From NCBI RefSeq assembly GCF_036507355.1, contig NZ_AP027877.1: a stretch of 64,000 nt of DNA; one strand, given 5' to 3'. The DNA comes from Escherichia coli (lineage in GTDB: Bacteria; Pseudomonadota; Gammaproteobacteria; Enterobacterales; Enterobacteriaceae). The first letter of the stretch is position 1; the number at the start of each line of letters is the position of its first letter. The notes under the pieces are model-generated. The model saw nothing but the letters and a program-made list of their open reading frames with translations. It searched no databases and was not told the DNA's origin. Shown here in pieces: positions 11,451 to 45,899 of the stretch. Position numbers and translations under genes: made by a program.

Positions 11451-11605
11451 GCGTAATGGCGCGCCGTGGGAAGCGCGGACATTAATTAACCAACTGCACT
11501 GCGTGTCTTTCAGGATCAAAGGTTTTCGCGGTAGCGGGATGCGTCGTGTTGATGACGACCATGCCCGACAGTTGCAATTCGTGGCAAAAATGCAGGAATA
11601 AAACA

Positions 11606-13846
11606 ATGAACAAGAAGATTCATTCCCTGGCCTTGTTGGTCAATCTGGGGATTTATGGGGTAGCGCAGGCACAAGAGCCGACCGATACTCCTGTTTCACA
11701 TGACGATACTATTGTCGTTACCGCCGCCGAGCAGAACTTACAGGCGCCTGGCGTTTCGACCATCACCGCAGATGAAATCCGCAAAAACCCCGTTGCCCGC
11801 GATGTGTCGGAGATCATCCGTACCATGCCAGGCGTTAACCTGACCGGTAACTCCACCAGTGGTCAGCGAGGGAATAACCGACAGATTGATATTCGCGGTA
11901 TGGGTCCGGAAAACACGCTGATTTTGATTGACGGCAAGCCGGTAAGCAGCCGTAACTCGGTGCGTCAGGGCTGGCGTGGCGAGCGCGATACCCGTGGTGA
12001 TACCTCCTGGGTGCCACCTGAAATGATTGAACGTATTGAAGTTCTGCGTGGTCCGGCAGCTGCGCGTTATGGCAACGGCGCGGCGGGCGGCGTAGTTAAC
12101 ATCATTACCAAAAAAGGCAGCGGCGAGTGGCACGGCTCCTGGGACGCATATTTCAATGCGCCAGAACATAAAGAGGAAGGTGCCACCAAACGCACTAACT
12201 TTAGCCTGACCGGTCCGCTGGGCGACGAATTCAGCTTCCGCTTGTATGGCAACCTCGACAAAACTCAGGCTGACGCGTGGGATATCAACCAGGGCCATCA
12301 GTCCGCGCGTGCCGGAACGTATGCCACGACGTTACCAGCCGGGCGCGAAGGGGTGATCAACAAAGATATTAATGGCGTGGTGCGCTGGGACTTCGCGCCT
12401 CTGCAATCACTCGAACTGGAAGCGGGTTACAGCCGCCAGGGTAACCTGTATGCGGGTGATACCCAGAACACCAACTCTGACGCTTACACTCGCTCGAAAT
12501 ATGGCGATGAAACCAACCGCCTGTATCGCCAGAACTACTCGCTGACCTGGAACGGTGGCTGGGATAACGGCGTGACCACCAGCAACTGGGTGCAGTACGA
12601 ACACACCCGTAACTCGCGTATTCCGGAAGGTCTGGCGGGCGGTACCGAAGGGAAATTTAACGAAAAAGCGACACAGGATTTCGTCGATATCGATCTTGAT
12701 GACGTGATGCTGCATAGCGAAGTTAACCTGCCGATTGATTTCCTCGTTAACCAGACGCTGACGCTGGGTACGGAGTGGAATCAGCAACGGATGAAGGACT
12801 TAAGTTCCAACACCCAGGCACTGACCGGAACGAATACCGGTGGCGCTATTGATGGCGTGAGTGCCACCGACCGTAGCCCGTATTCAAAAGCAGAAATTTT
12901 CTCGCTGTTTGCCGAAAACAACATGGAGCTGACTGACAGCACCATCGTAACGCCGGGGCTGCGTTTCGATCATCACAGTATTGTCGGCAATAACTGGAGC
13001 CCGGCGCTGAACATATCGCAAGGTTTAGGCGATGACTTCACGCTGAAAATGGGCATTGCCCGCGCCTATAAAGCGCCGAGCCTGTACCAGACTAACCCGA
13101 ACTACATTCTCTACAGTAAAGGTCAGGGCTGCTATGCCAGCGCGGGCGGCTGCTATCTGCAAGGTAACGATGACCTGAAAGCAGAAACCAGCATCAACAA
13201 AGAGATTGGTCTGGAGTTCAAACGCGACGGCTGGCTGGCGGGCATCACCTGGTTCCGTAACGATTATCGCAATAAGATTGAAGCAGGCTATGTTGCTGTA
13301 GGGCAAAACGCAGTCGGCACCGATCTCTATCAGTGGGATAACGTGCCGAAAGCGGTGGTTGAAGGTCTGGAAGGATCGTTAAACGTACCGGTTAGCGAAA
13401 CGGTGATGTGGACTAATAACATCACTTATATGCTGAAGAGTGAAAACAAAACCACGGGCGACCGTTTGTCGATCATCCCGGAGTATACGTTGAACTCAAC
13501 GCTGAGCTGGCAGGCACGAGAAGATTTGTCGATGCAAACGACCTTCACCTGGTACGGTAAGCAGCAGCCGAAGAAGTACAACTATAAAGGTCAGCCAGCG
13601 GTTGGACCGGAAACCAAAGAAATTAGTCCTTACAGCATTGTTGGGCTGAGCGCGACGTGGGATGTGACGAAGAATGTCAGTCTGACCGGCGGCGTGGACA
13701 ATCTGTTCGACAAACGTTTGTGGCGTGCGGGTAATGCCCAGACCACGGGCGATTTGGCAGGGGCCAACTATATCGCCGGTGCCGGGGCGTATACCTATAA
13801 CGAGCCGGGACGCACGTGGTATATGAGCGTAAACACCCACTTCTGA
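11606..13846 (+). CDS. fepA: TonB-dependent ferric enterobactin outer membrane receptor FepA
   Basis: 746 aa from the ATG at 11606 (MNKKIHSLALLVNLGIYGVAQA signal peptide); TonB box DTIVVTA; C-terminal aromatic residue (HF). Confidence 0.97.
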   Translation: MNKKIHSLALLVNLGIYGVAQAQEPTDTPVSHDDTIVVTAAEQNLQAPGVSTITADEIRKNPVARDVSEIIRTMPGVNLTGNSTSGQRGNNRQIDIRGMGPENTLILIDGKPVSSRNSVRQGWRGERDTRGDTSWVPPEMIERIEVLRGPAAARYGNGAAGGVVNIITKKGSGEWHGSWDAYFNAPEHKEEGATKRTNFSLTGPLGDEFSFRLYGNLDKTQADAWDINQGHQSARAGTYATTLPAGREGVINKDINGVVRWDFAPLQSLELEAGYSRQGNLYAGDTQNTNSDAYTRSKYGDETNRLYRQNYSLTWNGGWDNGVTTSNWVQYEHTRNSRIPEGLAGGTEGKFNEKATQDFVDIDLDDVMLHSEVNLPIDFLVNQTLTLGTEWNQQRMKDLSSNTQALTGTNTGGAIDGVSATDRSPYSKAEIFSLFAENNMELTDSTIVTPGLRFDHHSIVGNNWSPALNISQGLGDDFTLKMGIARAYKAPSLYQTNPNYILYSKGQGCYASAGGCYLQGNDDLKAETSINKEIGLEFKRDGWLAGITWFRNDYRNKIEAGYVAVGQNAVGTDLYQWDNVPKAVVEGLEGSLNVPVSETVMWTNNITYMLKSENKTTGDRLSIIPEYTLNSTLSWQAREDLSMQTTFTWYGKQQPKKYNYKGQPAVGPETKEISPYSIVGLSATWDVTKNVSLTGGVDNLFDKRLWRAGNAQTTGDLAGANYIAGAGAYTYNEPGRTWYMSVNTHF

Positions 13847-13883
13847 TGCTAACGTCAGATTGTTGACAAAGTGCGCGTCGTTC

Positions 13884-13984
13884 ATGCCGGATGCGGCGTG
13901 AACGCCTTATCCGGCCTACAAAAATCTTGCCAATTCAATATATTGCAGGACCATGTAGGCCTGATAAGCGTAGCGCATCAGGCA
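13884..13984. repeat. REP/BIME element (two inverted REP palindromes) between fepA and entD
   Basis: gccggatgcggcgtgaacgccttatccggcctaca and tgtaggcctgataagcgtagcgcatcaggc are canonical REP sequences in opposite orientation. Confidence 0.8.
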
Positions 13985-14020
13985 GTTTTGCGTTTGTCAT
14001 CAGTCTCGGATATGGTCGAT

Positions 14021-14641
14021 ATGAAAACTACGCATACCTCCCTCCCCTTTGCCGGACATACGCTGCATTTTGTTGAGTTCGATCCGGCGAATTTTTGTGA
14101 GCAGGATTTACTCTGGCTGCCGCACTACGCACAACTGCAACACGCTGGACGTAAACGTAAAACAGAGCATTTAGCCGGACGGATCGCTGCTGTTTATGCC
14201 TTGCGGGAATATGGCTATAAATGTGTGCCCGCAATCGGCGAGCTACGCCAACCGGTGTGGCCTGCGGAGGTATACGGCAGTATTAGCCACTGCGGGGCTA
14301 CGGCATTGGCCGTGGTTTCCCGTCAACCGATTGGCGTTGATATCGAAGAAATTTTTTCTGCGCAAACAGCGACCGAATTGACAGACAACATTATTACACC
14401 AGCAGAACACGAGCGACTCGCAGACTGCGGTTTAGCCTTTTCTCTGGCGCTGACACTGGCATTTTCCGCCAAAGAGAGCGCATTTAAGGCAAGTGAGATC
14501 CAAACTGATGCAGGTTTTCTGGACTATCAGATAATTAGCTGGAATAAACAGCAGGTCATCATTCATCGTGAGAATGAGATGTTTGCTGTGCACTGGCAGA
14601 TAAAAGAAAAAATAGTCATAACTCTGTGCCAACATGATTAA
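14021..14641 (+). CDS. entD: Phosphopantetheinyl transferase EntD
   Basis: 206 aa from the ATG at 14021 (MKTTHTSLPFAGH...); the longer track ORF from 13871 runs through the REP element and is not credible. Start could also be the ATG at 14012. Confidence 0.92.
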   Translation: MKTTHTSLPFAGHTLHFVEFDPANFCEQDLLWLPHYAQLQHAGRKRKTEHLAGRIAAVYALREYGYKCVPAIGELRQPVWPAEVYGSISHCGATALAVVSRQPIGVDIEEIFSAQTATELTDNIITPAEHERLADCGLAFSLALTLAFSAKESAFKASEIQTDAGFLDYQIISWNKQQVIIHRENEMFAVHWQIKEKIVITLCQHD

Positions 14642-36956: not shown

Positions 36957-37001
36957 AGGGCAAAGCGGAAACGGATAAGACGGGCATAAATGAAGAAGAA
37001 A

Positions 37002-37078
37002 TGGCGCGCCCTGCAGGATTCGAACCTGCGGCCCACGACTTAGAAGGTCGTTGCTCTATCCAACTGAGCTAAGGGCGC
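37002..37078 (-). tRNA. argU: tRNA-Arg (anticodon UCU), argU
   Basis: Reverse complement reads GCGCCCTTAGCTCAGTTGGATAGAGCAACGACCTTCTAAGTCGTGGGCCGCAGGTTCGAATCCTGCAGGGCGCGCCA: cloverleaf with TTCGAATCC T-arm, UCU anticodon and CCA end. Confidence 0.93.
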
Positions 37079-37320
37079 GTTGATACCGCAATGCGGTGTA
37101 ATCGCGTGAATTATACGGTCAACCCTTGCTGAGTCAATGGCTTTTGATCTGGTTGCTGAACAAGTGAACGACCGCGTCTGATTTTCTGATTTATTTCGCT
37201 ATAGCGGCAAACAAATGCACACCGCTGCGCATCTGAATCAAGAAAACCCGTATTTTCATGTATCAAAGTACAATTTACCGCCCTAACGGAAAATTGTCCG
37301 CTCCTATGAGACTGGTAACT

Positions 37321-37529
37321 ATGAAACCAACGTCGGTGATCATTATGGATACTCATCCTATCATCAGAATGTCTATTGAAGTTCTGTTGCAAAAAAACAG
37401 TGAATTGCAGATTGTCCTGAAAACGGATGATTACCGCATAACCATCGATTATCTCCGAACCCGTCCTGTTGATTTAATCATTATGGATATAGACTTGCCC
37501 GGAACAGACGGTTTTACCTTCCTGAAAAG
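37321..37529 (+). pseudogene. fimZ: 5' fragment of response-regulator gene fimZ (receiver domain only), truncated by IS1
   Basis: Encodes MKPTSVIIMDTHPIIRMSIEVLLQKNSELQIVLKTDDYRITIDYLRTRPVDLIIMDIDLPGTDGFTFLKR, then runs into the IS1 terminal repeat (…VMTPTY*). Confidence 0.85.
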
Positions 37530-37544
37530 GGTAATGACTCCAAC

Positions 37545-38048
37545 TTATTGATAGTGTTTTATGTTCAGATAATGCCCGATGACTTTGTCATGCAGCTCCA
37601 CCGATTTTGAGAACGACAGCGACTTCCGTCCCAGCCGTGCCAGGTGCTGCCTCAGATTCAGGTTATGCCGCTCAATTCGCTGCGTATATCGCTTGCTGAT
37701 TACGTGCAGCTTTCCCTTCAGGCGGGATTCATACAGCGGCCAGCCATCCGTCATCCATATCACCACGTCAAAGGGTGACAGCAGGCTCATAAGACGCCCC
37801 AGCGTCGCCATCGTGCGTTCACCGAATACGTGCGCAACAACCGTCTTCCGGAGCCTGTCATACGCGTAAAACAGCCAGCGCTGGCGCGATTTAGCCCCGA
37901 CATAGCCCCACTGTTCGTCCATTTCCGCGCAGACGATGACGTCACTGCCCGGCTGTATGCGCGAGGTTACCGACTGCGGCCTGAGTTTTTTAAGTGACGT
38001 AAAATCGTGTTGAGGCCAACGCCCATAATGCGGGCTGTTGCCCGGCAT
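37545..38048 (-). CDS. insB: IS1 InsB (transposase frame; InsAB' is made by -1 frameshift)
   Basis: 167-aa [28 protein letters not shown]… overlapping the insA 3' end in the -1 frame. Confidence 0.95.
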
Positions 38049-38242
38049 CCAACGCCATTCATGGCCATATCAATGATTTTCTGGTGCGTACCGGGTTGAG
38101 AAGCGGTGTAAGTGAACTGCAGTTGCCATGTTTTACGGCAGTGAGAGCAGAGATAGCGCTGATGTCCGGCGGTGCTTTTGCCGTTACGCACCACCCCGTC
38201 AGTAGCTGAACAGGAGGGACAGCTGATAGAAACAGAAGCCAC
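37967..38242 (-). CDS. insA: IS1 InsA
   Basis: 91-aa protein [42 protein letters not shown]…. Confidence 0.95.
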
Positions 38243-38525
38243 TGGAGCACCTCAAAAACACCATCATACACTAAATCAGTAAGTTGGCAGCATCACCAAT
38301 TATCTTAATCCTTTGACAAGGAAATAAGTCAGTTCCAGATTTACAACGCCATCATGGACGAAAAATGAAGCTTTCAATCTCAGCGACCTCAGCGACGGTG
38401 CGCCTAACCTTCGCAAGAGGTCGCTTCACGCGATAAATCTGAAACGAAACCTGACAGCGCGCCCCGCTTCTGACAAAATAGGCGCATCCCCTTCGACCTA
38501 CGTAACAGATGGAATCCTCTCTCTG

Positions 38526-43165: not shown

Positions 43166-43675
43166 ATGTCTTCCCGCAATAATCCGGCGCGTGTCGCCAT
43201 CGTGATGGGGTCCAAAAGCGACTGGGCTACCATGCAGTTCGCCGCCGAAATCTTCGAAATCCTGAATGTCCCGCACCACGTTGAAGTGGTTTCTGCTCAC
43301 CGCACCCCCGATAAACTGTTCAGCTTCGCCGAAAGCGCCGAAGAGAACGGTTATCAGGTGATTATTGCGGGCGCAGGCGGCGCGGCGCACCTGCCAGGTA
43401 TGATTGCCGCCAAAACGCTGGTGCCGGTGCTGGGCGTGCCAGTACAGAGCGCCGCACTGAGCGGTGTCGATAGCCTCTATTCTATCGTACAAATGCCGCG
43501 CGGCATTCCGGTGGGTACGCTGGCGATTGGTAAAGCTGGCGCGGCAAACGCGGCGTTACTGGCAGCACAAATTCTTGCGACTCATGATAAAGAACTGCAC
43601 CAGCGTCTGAATGACTGGCGCAAAGCCCAGACCGACGAAGTGCTGGAAAACCCGGACCCGCGAGGTGCGGCATGA
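43166..43675 (+). CDS. purE: N5-carboxyaminoimidazole ribonucleotide mutase PurE
   Basis: 169 aa from the ATG at 43166 ([20 protein letters not shown]…). Confidence 0.97.
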
Positions 43676-44739
43676 AACAGGTTTGCGTCCTCGGTAACGG
43701 GCAGTTAGGCCGTATGCTGCGTCAGGCAGGCGAACCGTTAGGCATTGCTGTCTGGCCAGTCGGGCTGGACGCTGAACCGGCGGCGGTGCCTTTTCAACAA
43801 AGCGTGATTACCGCTGAGATCGAACGCTGGCCGGAAACCGCATTAACCCGCGAGCTGGCGCGCCATCCGGCCTTTGTGAACCGCGATGTGTTCCCGATTA
43901 TTGCTGACCGTCTGACTCAGAAGCAGCTTTTCGATAAGCTCCACCTGCCGACTGCACCGTGGCAGTTACTTGCCGAACGCAGCGAGTGGCCTGCGGTGTT
44001 TGATCGTTTAGGTGAGCTGGCGATTGTTAAGCGTCGCACTGGTGGCTATGACGGACGCGGTCAATGGCGTTTACGCGCCGATGAAACCGAACAGTTACCG
44101 GAAGAGTGTTACGGCGAATGTATTGTCGAGCAAGGCATTAACTTCTCTGGTGAAGTATCGCTGGTTGGCGCGCGCGGCTTTGATGGCAGCACCGTGTTTT
44201 ATCCGCTGACGCATAACCTGCATCAGGACGGTATTTTGCGCACCAGCGTCGCTTTCCCGCAGGCCAATGCGCAGCAGCAAGCGCAAGCCGAAGAGATGCT
44301 TTCGGCGATTATGCAGGAGCTGGGCTATGTGGGCGTGATGGCGATGGAGTGTTTTGTCACCCCGCAAGGTCTGCTGATCAACGAACTGGCTCCGCGTGTG
44401 CATAACAGCGGTCACTGGACACAAAACGGTGCCAGCATCAGCCAGTTTGAGCTGCATCTGCGGGCGATTACCGCTCTGCCGTTACCGCAACCGATAGTGA
44501 ATAGTCCGTCGGTGATGATCAACCTGATTGGTAGCGATGTGAATTATGACTGGCTGAAACTGCCGCTGGTGCATCTGCACTGGTACGACAAAGAAGTCCG
44601 TCCGGGGCGTAAAGTGGGGCATCTGAATTTAACCGACAGCGACACATCGCGTCTGACCGCGACGCTGGAAGCCTTAATCCCGCTGCTGCCGTCAGAGTAT
44701 GCCAGCGGCGTGATGTGGGCGCAGAGCAAGTTCAGTTAA
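43672..44739 (+). CDS. purK: N5-carboxyaminoimidazole ribonucleotide synthase PurK
   Basis: 355-aa ATP-grasp ORF overlapping the purE stop (ATGA). Confidence 0.97.
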
Positions 44740-44749
44740 GCAGGTGCTC

Positions 44750-45000
44750 ATTTGATTGCCGGATGCGGCGTAAACGCCTTATCCAGCCTACCGATCCGGC
44801 ACCCATTGTAGGCCTGATAAGATGCGTCAAGCGTCGCATCAGGCATTGTGCGCCAATTGCCGGATGCGGCACCAATTGTAGGCCTGATAAGACGCGTCAA
44901 GCGTCGCATCAGGCATTGTGCGCCAATTGCCGGATGCGGCACCAATTGTAGGCCTGATAAGACGCGTCAAGCGTCGCATCAGGCACAAATGTCTAATGCC
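44750..45000. repeat. Cluster of REP palindromes (BIME) in three tandem units of about 70 bp
   Basis: gccggatgcggc…tgtaggcctgataagacgcgtcaagcgtcgcatcaggc repeated three times between convergent purK and ybcF. Confidence 0.85.
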
Positions 45001-45005
45001 TACAA

Positions 45006-45899
45006 CTACAGCGAAATACAGGTCCCCGCTTCGCCCGCCAGCGTCTCTTCAATCCGCGATAACGCCCCAATCCACGCGGGTTTACCACGGCTTCTGACAT
45101 AACCACTCACCGCCGTTACCTTCGGCCCCATCGAACCATCGGCTTTGGCAAATGGCGCTAACTCATCCGGTGTGGCATGGCGAATGGCACGTTGCTGCGG
45201 CGTTCCCCAGTTTTCATATACCGCATCAGCATCGGTGAGGATCACCAGTCCATCGGCGTTAATTTGCTCGGCGAGCAACGCAGCGGCGAGATCTTTATCA
45301 ATCACTGCTTCACTCCCTGCTCCGTCATCCGTCACAGGCACACCGCCGCCGCCACTGCAAATCACCACATGCCCCTCTTTGAGCAACAACTCGATGGCTT
45401 CGCTGTCGAGAATTTTACGCGGTTGCGGAGACGCCACCACCCGGCGTAAATATTTACCATCACGTTTCATCTGCCAGCCGTAAGCCGCTTCCAGTGCCTC
45501 TTGTTCTTCTGGCTGATAAACCGGACCAATAAATTTCTCTGGCTGCAAAAACGCCGGATCATCAGGCGAAACCTCAATGCGCGTCAGCACCGTCGTCACG
45601 GGCGGCATCTGCGGCTGTGCGCTCAAACTCTGCGCCAGCATATAGCCAATCATCCCCTGACTTTCTGCCACCAGCACATCCAGCGGATACGGTTCTACCT
45701 CTTTCCACGCCAGATTCTGCAATGCCAGCAGCCCCACCTGCGGCCCGTTGCCGTGAACAATCGCCAGCCGATAAGAACGGGCCAGGCGCGCCAGCGCGGG
45801 TACAGCACTGGCGATATTGCGATATTGATTTTCTGCCGTCAGCGCCTCACCGCGCTGAAGCAAGGCATTGCCCCCAAGAGCTACAACCAGTATTTTCAT
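45006..45899 (-). CDS. ybcF: Carbamate kinase-like protein YbcF (ArcC/AllK)
   Basis: 297-aa [21 protein letters not shown]… typical of the carbamate kinase family; start overlaps the ylbF stop. Confidence 0.92.

Follow-up and report, generated by a model that had tools for sequence, protein, structure and literature searches.

A BIME-2-derived REP array with three z2 copies in the spacer between the convergent purK and ybcF genes of Escherichia coli

The DNA studied here is a 64,000-nucleotide stretch of an Escherichia coli genome (contig NZ_AP027877.1, assembly GCF_036507355.1), which we call the window, and all positions given without another accession are those of this stretch. The purK gene (355 aa) is located on the plus strand at 43672-44739 and ends with the stop codon TAA at 44737-44739, and the ybcF gene, which encodes a carbamate kinase of 297 aa, is located on the minus strand at 45006-45899 and ends with the stop codon TAG. 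An earlier reading of this DNA from its letters only (the sequence-only reading) had named these two genes as the convergent flanks of a repeat array, and this is confirmed by the ORF coordinates, by Pfam (ATP-grasp and PurK_C for purK, AA_kinase for ybcF) and by the annotation of E. coli records. The purK annotation is present in all matching E. coli records, and proteins exactly identical to PurK and YbcF are recorded as E. coli under BED23398.1 and BED23399.1, respectively. The spacer between the two genes is 266 bp long (44740-45005), and the REP array proper extends from 44758 to 44985. Thus the array does lie inside the spacer, but the statement that it fills the whole intergenic region is not literally right, since it covers 228 of the 266 bases (86%). 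The first REP starts 18 nt after the purK stop codon, and the last z2 REP ends 20 nt before the stop codon of ybcF.

The array opens with a y-type REP, GCCGGATGCGGCGTAAACGCCTTATCCAGCCTAC, at 44758-44791, which is the sole intact y REP and which, read on the plus strand, is in the iREP orientation with CTAC at its 3′-end (44788-44791). It has 3 mismatches to the y REP at 13886 of the window (REP comparisons were ungapped Hamming scans). A 16-nt tail-to-tail linker, CGATCCGGCACCCATT, at 44792-44807 joins this y REP to the first z2 REP, and the same linker is found in K-12 and other alleles. Three z2-type REPs then follow on the plus strand at 44808-44845, 44878-44915 and 44948-44985, all in the same orientation, each with GTAG at its 5′-end (44808, 44878 and 44948) and with the plus-strand sequence GTAGGCCTGATAAGACGCGTCAAGCGTCGCATCAGGCA; copy 3 is identical to copy 2, and copy 1 is different from both by one base (in GATGC). 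Between the z2 copies are two linkers of 32 nt on the plus strand, linker 1 at 44846-44877 and linker 2 at 44916-44947, with 0 mismatches between them. Linker 1 can be divided into an S-type head-to-head linker of 13 nt, TTGTGCGCCAATT (44846-44858), a y head of 12 nt, GCCGGATGCGGC (44859-44870), and the heptamer ACCAATT (44871-44877), of which the second is the remnant head of a y REP and the third is a remnant of the tail-to-tail linker. Compared with the full 100-bp units of other alleles (L006, L007 and L016), the 70-bp units lack 31 bp between GATGCGGC and GATCCGGC, and these missing 31 bp comprise the remainder of the y REP and a portion of the tail-to-tail linker. Because the y heads are cut to 12 nt in units 2 and 3, z2 follows z2 as direct repeats without alternation with y. 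The labels y and z2 were assigned with the names from PMC3333891 and PMC4550694 and with the consensus sequences of these types.

The internal repetition that the sequence-only reading expected at 44700-45050 was recovered by Tandem Repeats Finder as a single array at 44793-44985 with a period of 70 (2.8 copies, 97% matches, 0 indels, score 365). A repeat search placed 70-nt copies in register at 44793, 44863 and 44933, with 100, 96 and 79% identity to the reference copy, and found three sets of hairpin arms of 14+14 nt, one per 70-nt copy, that are 79-86% complementary. The perfectly periodic part is 162 nt long (44824-44985), as 92 consecutive positions (44824-44915) are each equal to the base 70 nt downstream. 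By chance, a 106-nt repeat signature is expected 0.00 times (100 shuffles), and the 64-kb window has 7 occurrences of the REP head motif GCCKGATGCGRCG where 0.73 are expected, with 6 of the 7 inside the array. Hence the description of the region as a threefold tandem array of ~70-bp units with REP palindromes stands as far as the repetition is concerned, but it has to be corrected in that the three units are not equivalent: a full y-z2 unit is followed by two y-truncated ones, and the first period is 101 bp, as seen from the spacing of the 'ATTGCCGGATGCGGC' motif, which is 101 and then 70.

All four REPs (the 34-nt y and the three 38-nt z2) fold into hairpins on both strands, with energies of -15 to -22 kcal/mol (extreme -22.1) and z scores of -2.9 to -6.0, and only 0-2 of 200 shuffled sequences fold as stably. 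The hairpin of the y REP has -15.1 kcal/mol on the plus and -18.7 kcal/mol on the minus strand, and those of z2 copies 1 and 2 have -20.0 kcal/mol (z -4.6) and -21.8 kcal/mol (z -5.4), respectively. The 32-nt linker folds no better than shuffled sequence (z 0.13), and the spacer as a whole reaches about -125 kcal/mol on each of the two strands (z scores of -6.3 and -5.8). A search for intrinsic terminators, i.e. a GC-rich hairpin followed by a T tract, returned 0 candidates on either strand in 44300-45400; the bases that follow the REP hairpins are TTGTGC or CAAATG, with no T runs. No promoter-like site was found inside the spacer, and the only consensus match in 44300-45400 is within purK on the minus strand.

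E. coli REPs are imperfect palindromes of 30-40 nt with a conserved GTAG foot, and are divided into the types y, z1 and z2 (PMC3333891). The y and the three z2 elements are palindromes of this length that form hairpins, they carry the GTAG foot (CTAC where the other strand is read), and they are extragenic, the array being wholly in the spacer. They are also dispersed: a 951-nt query of the array and its flanks has a median of 19 matching places per genome in 5,425 E. coli genomes, and a 102-nt query made of linker, z2 and linker has a median of 4 per E. coli genome. Thus the REP/BIME identity that had been proposed for the region holds, with REPs of both types, the expected feet and stable hairpins on both strands. 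[quoted passage not shown] The present array, with one intact y and three z2 REPs with GTAG feet, resembles BIME-2 (PMC3333891, PMC10592627) in this composition, in its tandem arrangement, in its intergenic position and in a copy number that differs between strains at purK-ybcF, and other alleles of the same locus are canonical BIME-2 with 2, 3 or 5 units of 100 bp. However, it does not have the inverse alternation of y and z2 in every unit; the inverse pair is present only in unit 1, units 2 and 3 are y-truncated, and there is no intact head-to-head y-S-z2 pair. Because the alternation fails, 'atypical BIME' or BIME-2 derivative is the accurate label, and the purK-ybcF array is a BIME-2-derived atypical BIME.

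Descriptions of REP/BIME arrays, of the hairpins that they form and of their copy-number differences among strains go back decades, and K-12 has the same BIME at this locus. In K-12 MG1655 (NC_000913.3, spacer 551333-551526), the same flanking genes and the same right junction, CACAAATGTCTAATGCCTAC, enclose an intact y REP, the 16-nt linker, a z2 REP, a 32-nt linker with the truncated y head, and a second z2 REP. K-12 differs from the window by having two z2 units in a spacer of 194 bp, compared with three in 266 bp, and by a few point substitutions, and the first z2 of K-12 has the compensated inner-stem pair GATGC...GCATC, compared with GATGC...GCGTC in the window. In the feature table of NC_000913.3 as retrieved, no repeat_region is given for the spacer 551333-551526, though the REPs are plainly there. 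Strain 33F4 also has two z2 units in the same architecture, with a spacer of 196 bp.

The earlier statement that copy number varies between strains was right, as 0 to 5 units were found at purK-ybcF among E. coli genomes. Sixteen alleles were decoded directly from sequence, and their spacers range from one y-z2 unit (126-138 bp), through y with two z2 as in K-12 (194-206 bp), two full 100-bp units (233 bp) and three full units (332 bp), to five full units (533 bp); one of the sixteen (L009) has a spacer of 152 bp with unrelated sequence and no REP. The frequencies of these classes were estimated from 97 genomes, taken as two samples at even steps down BLAST rankings with lengths from match spans, and they are rough because the rows are non-random and only one or a few representatives were decoded for each length class: one unit in 38 of 97 genomes, two z2 units of the K-12 type in 36, five full units in 12, two full units in 5, no REP in 5, three full units in 1, and three z2 units of the truncated kind in 0. 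For the last class we used the 102-nt query, to which a full-length match is possible only with at least three z2 units, and three z2 units at purK-ybcF were found in 2 of 5,426 complete E. coli genomes, A16 and ETEC6335. Both have a left and right flank haplotype unlike that of the window, and therefore the third unit has been gained more than once. The three-unit signature was absent from GTDB species representatives and from JGI metagenomes, and the first-unit haplotype specific to the window was not found in JGI metagenomes. The three-unit allele is rare but unremarkable, and the purK-ybcF spacer as such, with 126 to 533 bp in different E. coli lineages, makes a highly polymorphic length marker.

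Several smaller features of these alleles were recorded. A comparison of L003, L004, L010, L011 and L013 with 44986-45005 of the window shows that at the right end of the array two junctions exist in the population, CACAAATGTCTAATGCCTAC(A/G)A, as in the window and K-12, and ATGGTGCACCGATTGC(C/T)GGATGCTCTCATCA, which is a further S linker with part of a y head; arrays of 1, 2 or 3 z2 units are found with either junction. Two loop variants of the z2 REP exist, of 38 and 37 nt, and these are tied to different unit types. Across alleles, one variable stem pair of z2 is C-G, T-A, T-G or C-A; with the loop variants mixed, this is too little for covariation. The spacer without REPs (E. coli strain E118, positions 641-792 of the L009 record) contains a different GC-rich palindrome, CCCCTCACCCTAACCCTCTCCCCACAGGGGCGAGGGGAC. 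Among species representatives, the sole match to the truncated y′-z2 junction was a contig of 379 bp with 0.75x coverage (NZ_JAAARM010000155.1, L015) recorded as 'Pseudomonas sp. Fl4BN1', which holds a K-12-type purK-ybcF spacer and the 3′-end of ybcF; from its sequence, this is most probably E. coli DNA contaminating a Pseudomonas assembly.

The third unit of the window is a recent and exact 70-bp tandem duplication. That it is exact and recent follows from the identity of 44824-44915 to the bases 70 nt downstream, and the breakpoint cannot be placed within 44824-44985. The best match of the window among complete E. coli genomes is 98.5% identical over 24 kb, and a draft genome with the same YbcF (GCA_905398585.1, L018) has flanks that are 99.9% identical over 3.9 kb. 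The spacer of this draft is base-for-base that of the window, including the window-specific substitutions, minus one 70-bp unit. The two units of this close relative are not airtight evidence, as a short-read draft could have collapsed three units to two. A Logan short-read assembly (L019), with 100% identity to the window over 2.4 kb, stops within the third z2 (at window position 44957). Since the 162-nt periodic stretch is longer than a typical read and this assembly breaks there, draft assemblies might under-count units. Hence such a stretch breaks or may collapse short-read assemblies, and copy numbers from drafts are unreliable.

The y REPs expected between the z2 copies have been cut to 12-nt heads by loss of 31 bp between the short direct repeats GATGCGGC and GATCCGGC. 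The common E. coli allele of this truncated type, K-12 included, has two z2 units, and the third of the window was added by the exact 70-bp duplication. The cause of the duplication would most likely be unequal recombination or replication slippage between z2 copies 70 bp apart; alternatively, the REP-associated transposase TnpA(REP) might have exchanged strands. TnpA(REP) is a Y1 HUH transposase that mobilises REP doublets, and in vitro it recombines BIME substrates into multi-REP products (PMC3333891). The REPs at purK-ybcF share with the REPIN/RAYT system the GTAG and the stem mismatch that are both needed for TnpA(REP) binding (PMC3333891), but the gain of 70 bp is equally well explained by homology-driven slippage.

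It may be asked whether the third unit is biological at all, or whether it is an assembly or consensus error and the true allele is the common two-z2 form. In line with an error, three units on the haplotype of the window were present in 0 of 5,426 complete E. coli genomes, the closest recorded relative has two units, and the signature was missing from both the species representatives and the metagenomes mentioned above. We nevertheless consider an error unlikely. The source is a single 4.64-Mb contig, which suggests that it was finished or assembled from long reads, the duplicated unit is an exact copy in perfect register, and the unrelated complete genomes A16 and ETEC6335 have three z2 at the same locus, which means that this state occurs in nature. 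Moreover, loss of a unit from a short-read draft is likelier than gain of one in a finished assembly, and L019 does break within the array. A real duplication of 70 bp is the reading retained in the following.

Taking the composition, the alleles and the surroundings together, we hold with high confidence that the array is a BIME-2-derived, non-coding cluster in the 3′ region of its neighbours which obtained an extra unit by a 70-bp duplication, and whose most likely role is that of 3′-end hairpins. The array lies in the 3′ region that the convergent purEK and ybcF transcription units share, and transcripts of either strand would be expected to fold into a row of stable hairpins. Because no intrinsic terminator is present, the most likely role of these hairpins, by analogy with other REPs, is that they would set the 3′-ends of the purK and ybcF mRNAs and protect them. 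The REP/BIME family is associated with mRNA stabilisation, stable 3′-ends by Term-seq, gyrase binding and topological insulation (PMC3333891, PMC9023263, PMC10592627, PMC1475751); stable 3′-ends and mRNA protection by REPs are described in the first two of these sources, and the gyrase or insulator role of BIME-2 in the last two.

As a secondary possibility, the array may, again by analogy, be a gyrase-binding or supercoil-insulating site, for which its location between converging polymerases would be suitable. BIME-2 is bound and cleaved by DNA gyrase in vivo according to Espeli and Boccard (1997), as that work is represented in PMC3333891, PMC10592627 and PMC1475751. At purK-ybcF, only truncated y heads face z2 heads. 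Gyrase targeting of BIME-2 requires an intact head-to-head y-S-z2 pair, and thus targeting may be weaker here, so that the array may be a poorer gyrase target than a canonical BIME-2. In addition, about 5% of the sampled E. coli have no REP at this position (the L009 type), and therefore any function of the array is dispensable or replaceable. The gain of the third unit is most likely neutral or close to neutral. Liang, Rudd and Deutscher are said to have found in 2015 that REPs within about 15 nt of stop codons cause ribosome stalling; this rule probably does not apply at purK-ybcF, where the distances are 18 and 20 nt.

A different role would be that of a locus for non-coding RNA of the naRNA type, in which y-linker-z2 RNAs would bind HU and help to condense the nucleoid, as is reported for REP325. 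The naRNA4 family (RF02564), which was built from y-l-z2 units of REP325 (PMC4550694), is the only Rfam family that was matched, with six matches and E values down to 6.8e-06, but every match was below the gathering score (best 43.8 compared with 59.5 bits), a result that any REP pair would be expected to give. REP325, which is located between yjdM and yjdN and transcribed from its upstream gene, is also a tandem array of y-linker-z2 units, and about 80% of E. coli REPs are transcribed (PMC4550694). However, REP325 has six complete y-l-z2 units of 77 bp, whereas two of the three units here are without y, so that both hairpins are found only in the first unit. The effect of these RNAs hinged on RNA secondary structure and not on sequence (PMC4550694), which does not single out the present locus, and the spacer has, as described above, no promoter-like site of its own. 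By this comparison with REP325, a naRNA function at purK-ybcF seems improbable, slightly more so than an assembly error.

Less probable still is the idea that the y-truncated 70-bp unit works as a copy-number switch that mutates fast, and that the rare three-unit state was selected in this lineage and did not arise by neutral drift. If this idea, which we doubt strongly, were true, the number of z2 hairpins would tune the mRNA stability of the purEK and ybcF (allantoin/oxamate) operons, or the absorption of supercoils between the converging polymerases. The non-coding 3′-end cluster, with a third unit that makes little or no difference, thus remains the preferred reading.

That reading was also compared with a coding one. 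Three ORFs are present over the array, 44715-44951 and 44848-45102 on the plus strand and 44748-44945 on the minus strand, and because their frames are open over 65-84 codons they could be thought to encode real small proteins. They were regarded as artefacts of the repeats by the sequence-only reading, and our results agree. None of the three has a Pfam family, and a collection of about 15 billion predicted proteins contains none of their exact sequences. The purK-ybcF spacer carries no annotated CDS in any E. coli record inspected, and in the source genome the protein accessions of purK and ybcF are consecutive with no CDS between them. The start codons of the ORFs are GTG or TTG, the ORFs overlap purK or lie antisense to ybcF, their length and sequence shift with the number of units, and they vanish in one-unit and REP-less alleles. 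A period of 70 nt is not divisible by 3, so the reading frame changes from unit to unit. Real small proteins are therefore very improbable, and the three ORFs should stay out of annotation.

Finally, a small CRISPR-like array of 38-nt repeats and 32-nt spacers, whose spacing is mimicked by a palindromic 38-nt repeat at 32-nt intervals, can be dismissed with near certainty, since both 'spacers' are identical and made of REP and linker sequence, the repeat is a REP dispersed over the genome (with the medians of 19 and 4 places given above), the flanking genes are purK and ybcF and cas genes are absent, and distinct phage-matching spacers were found in none of the 16 alleles decoded. The 38+32-nt geometry could nevertheless fool CRISPR finders.

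Elsewhere in the window, a second REP cluster is located at 13886-13985, between the ORFs 11546-13846 and 13871-14641. It consists of the y REP GCCGGATGCGGCGTGAACGCCTTATCCGGCCTAC, an AT-rich linker of 35 nt and a shorter inverted REP, GTAGGCCTGATAAGCGTAGCGCATCAGGCA, and from this order of elements (y, long linker, z1) it looks like a BIME-1. The GTG start of the ORF 13871-14641 overlaps the REP and was probably called too far upstream. At 37000-38297, the DLP12 cryptic prophage of K-12, with ompT, is cleanly missing next to an intact argU gene for tRNA-Arg(UCU) at 37002-37078. An IS1 copy at about 37531-38297, with the InsB ORF at 37545-38048 and a terminal repeat at 38275-38297, replaces the segment 557960-564271 of K-12, which contains the sfm fimbrial operon and most of fimZ.
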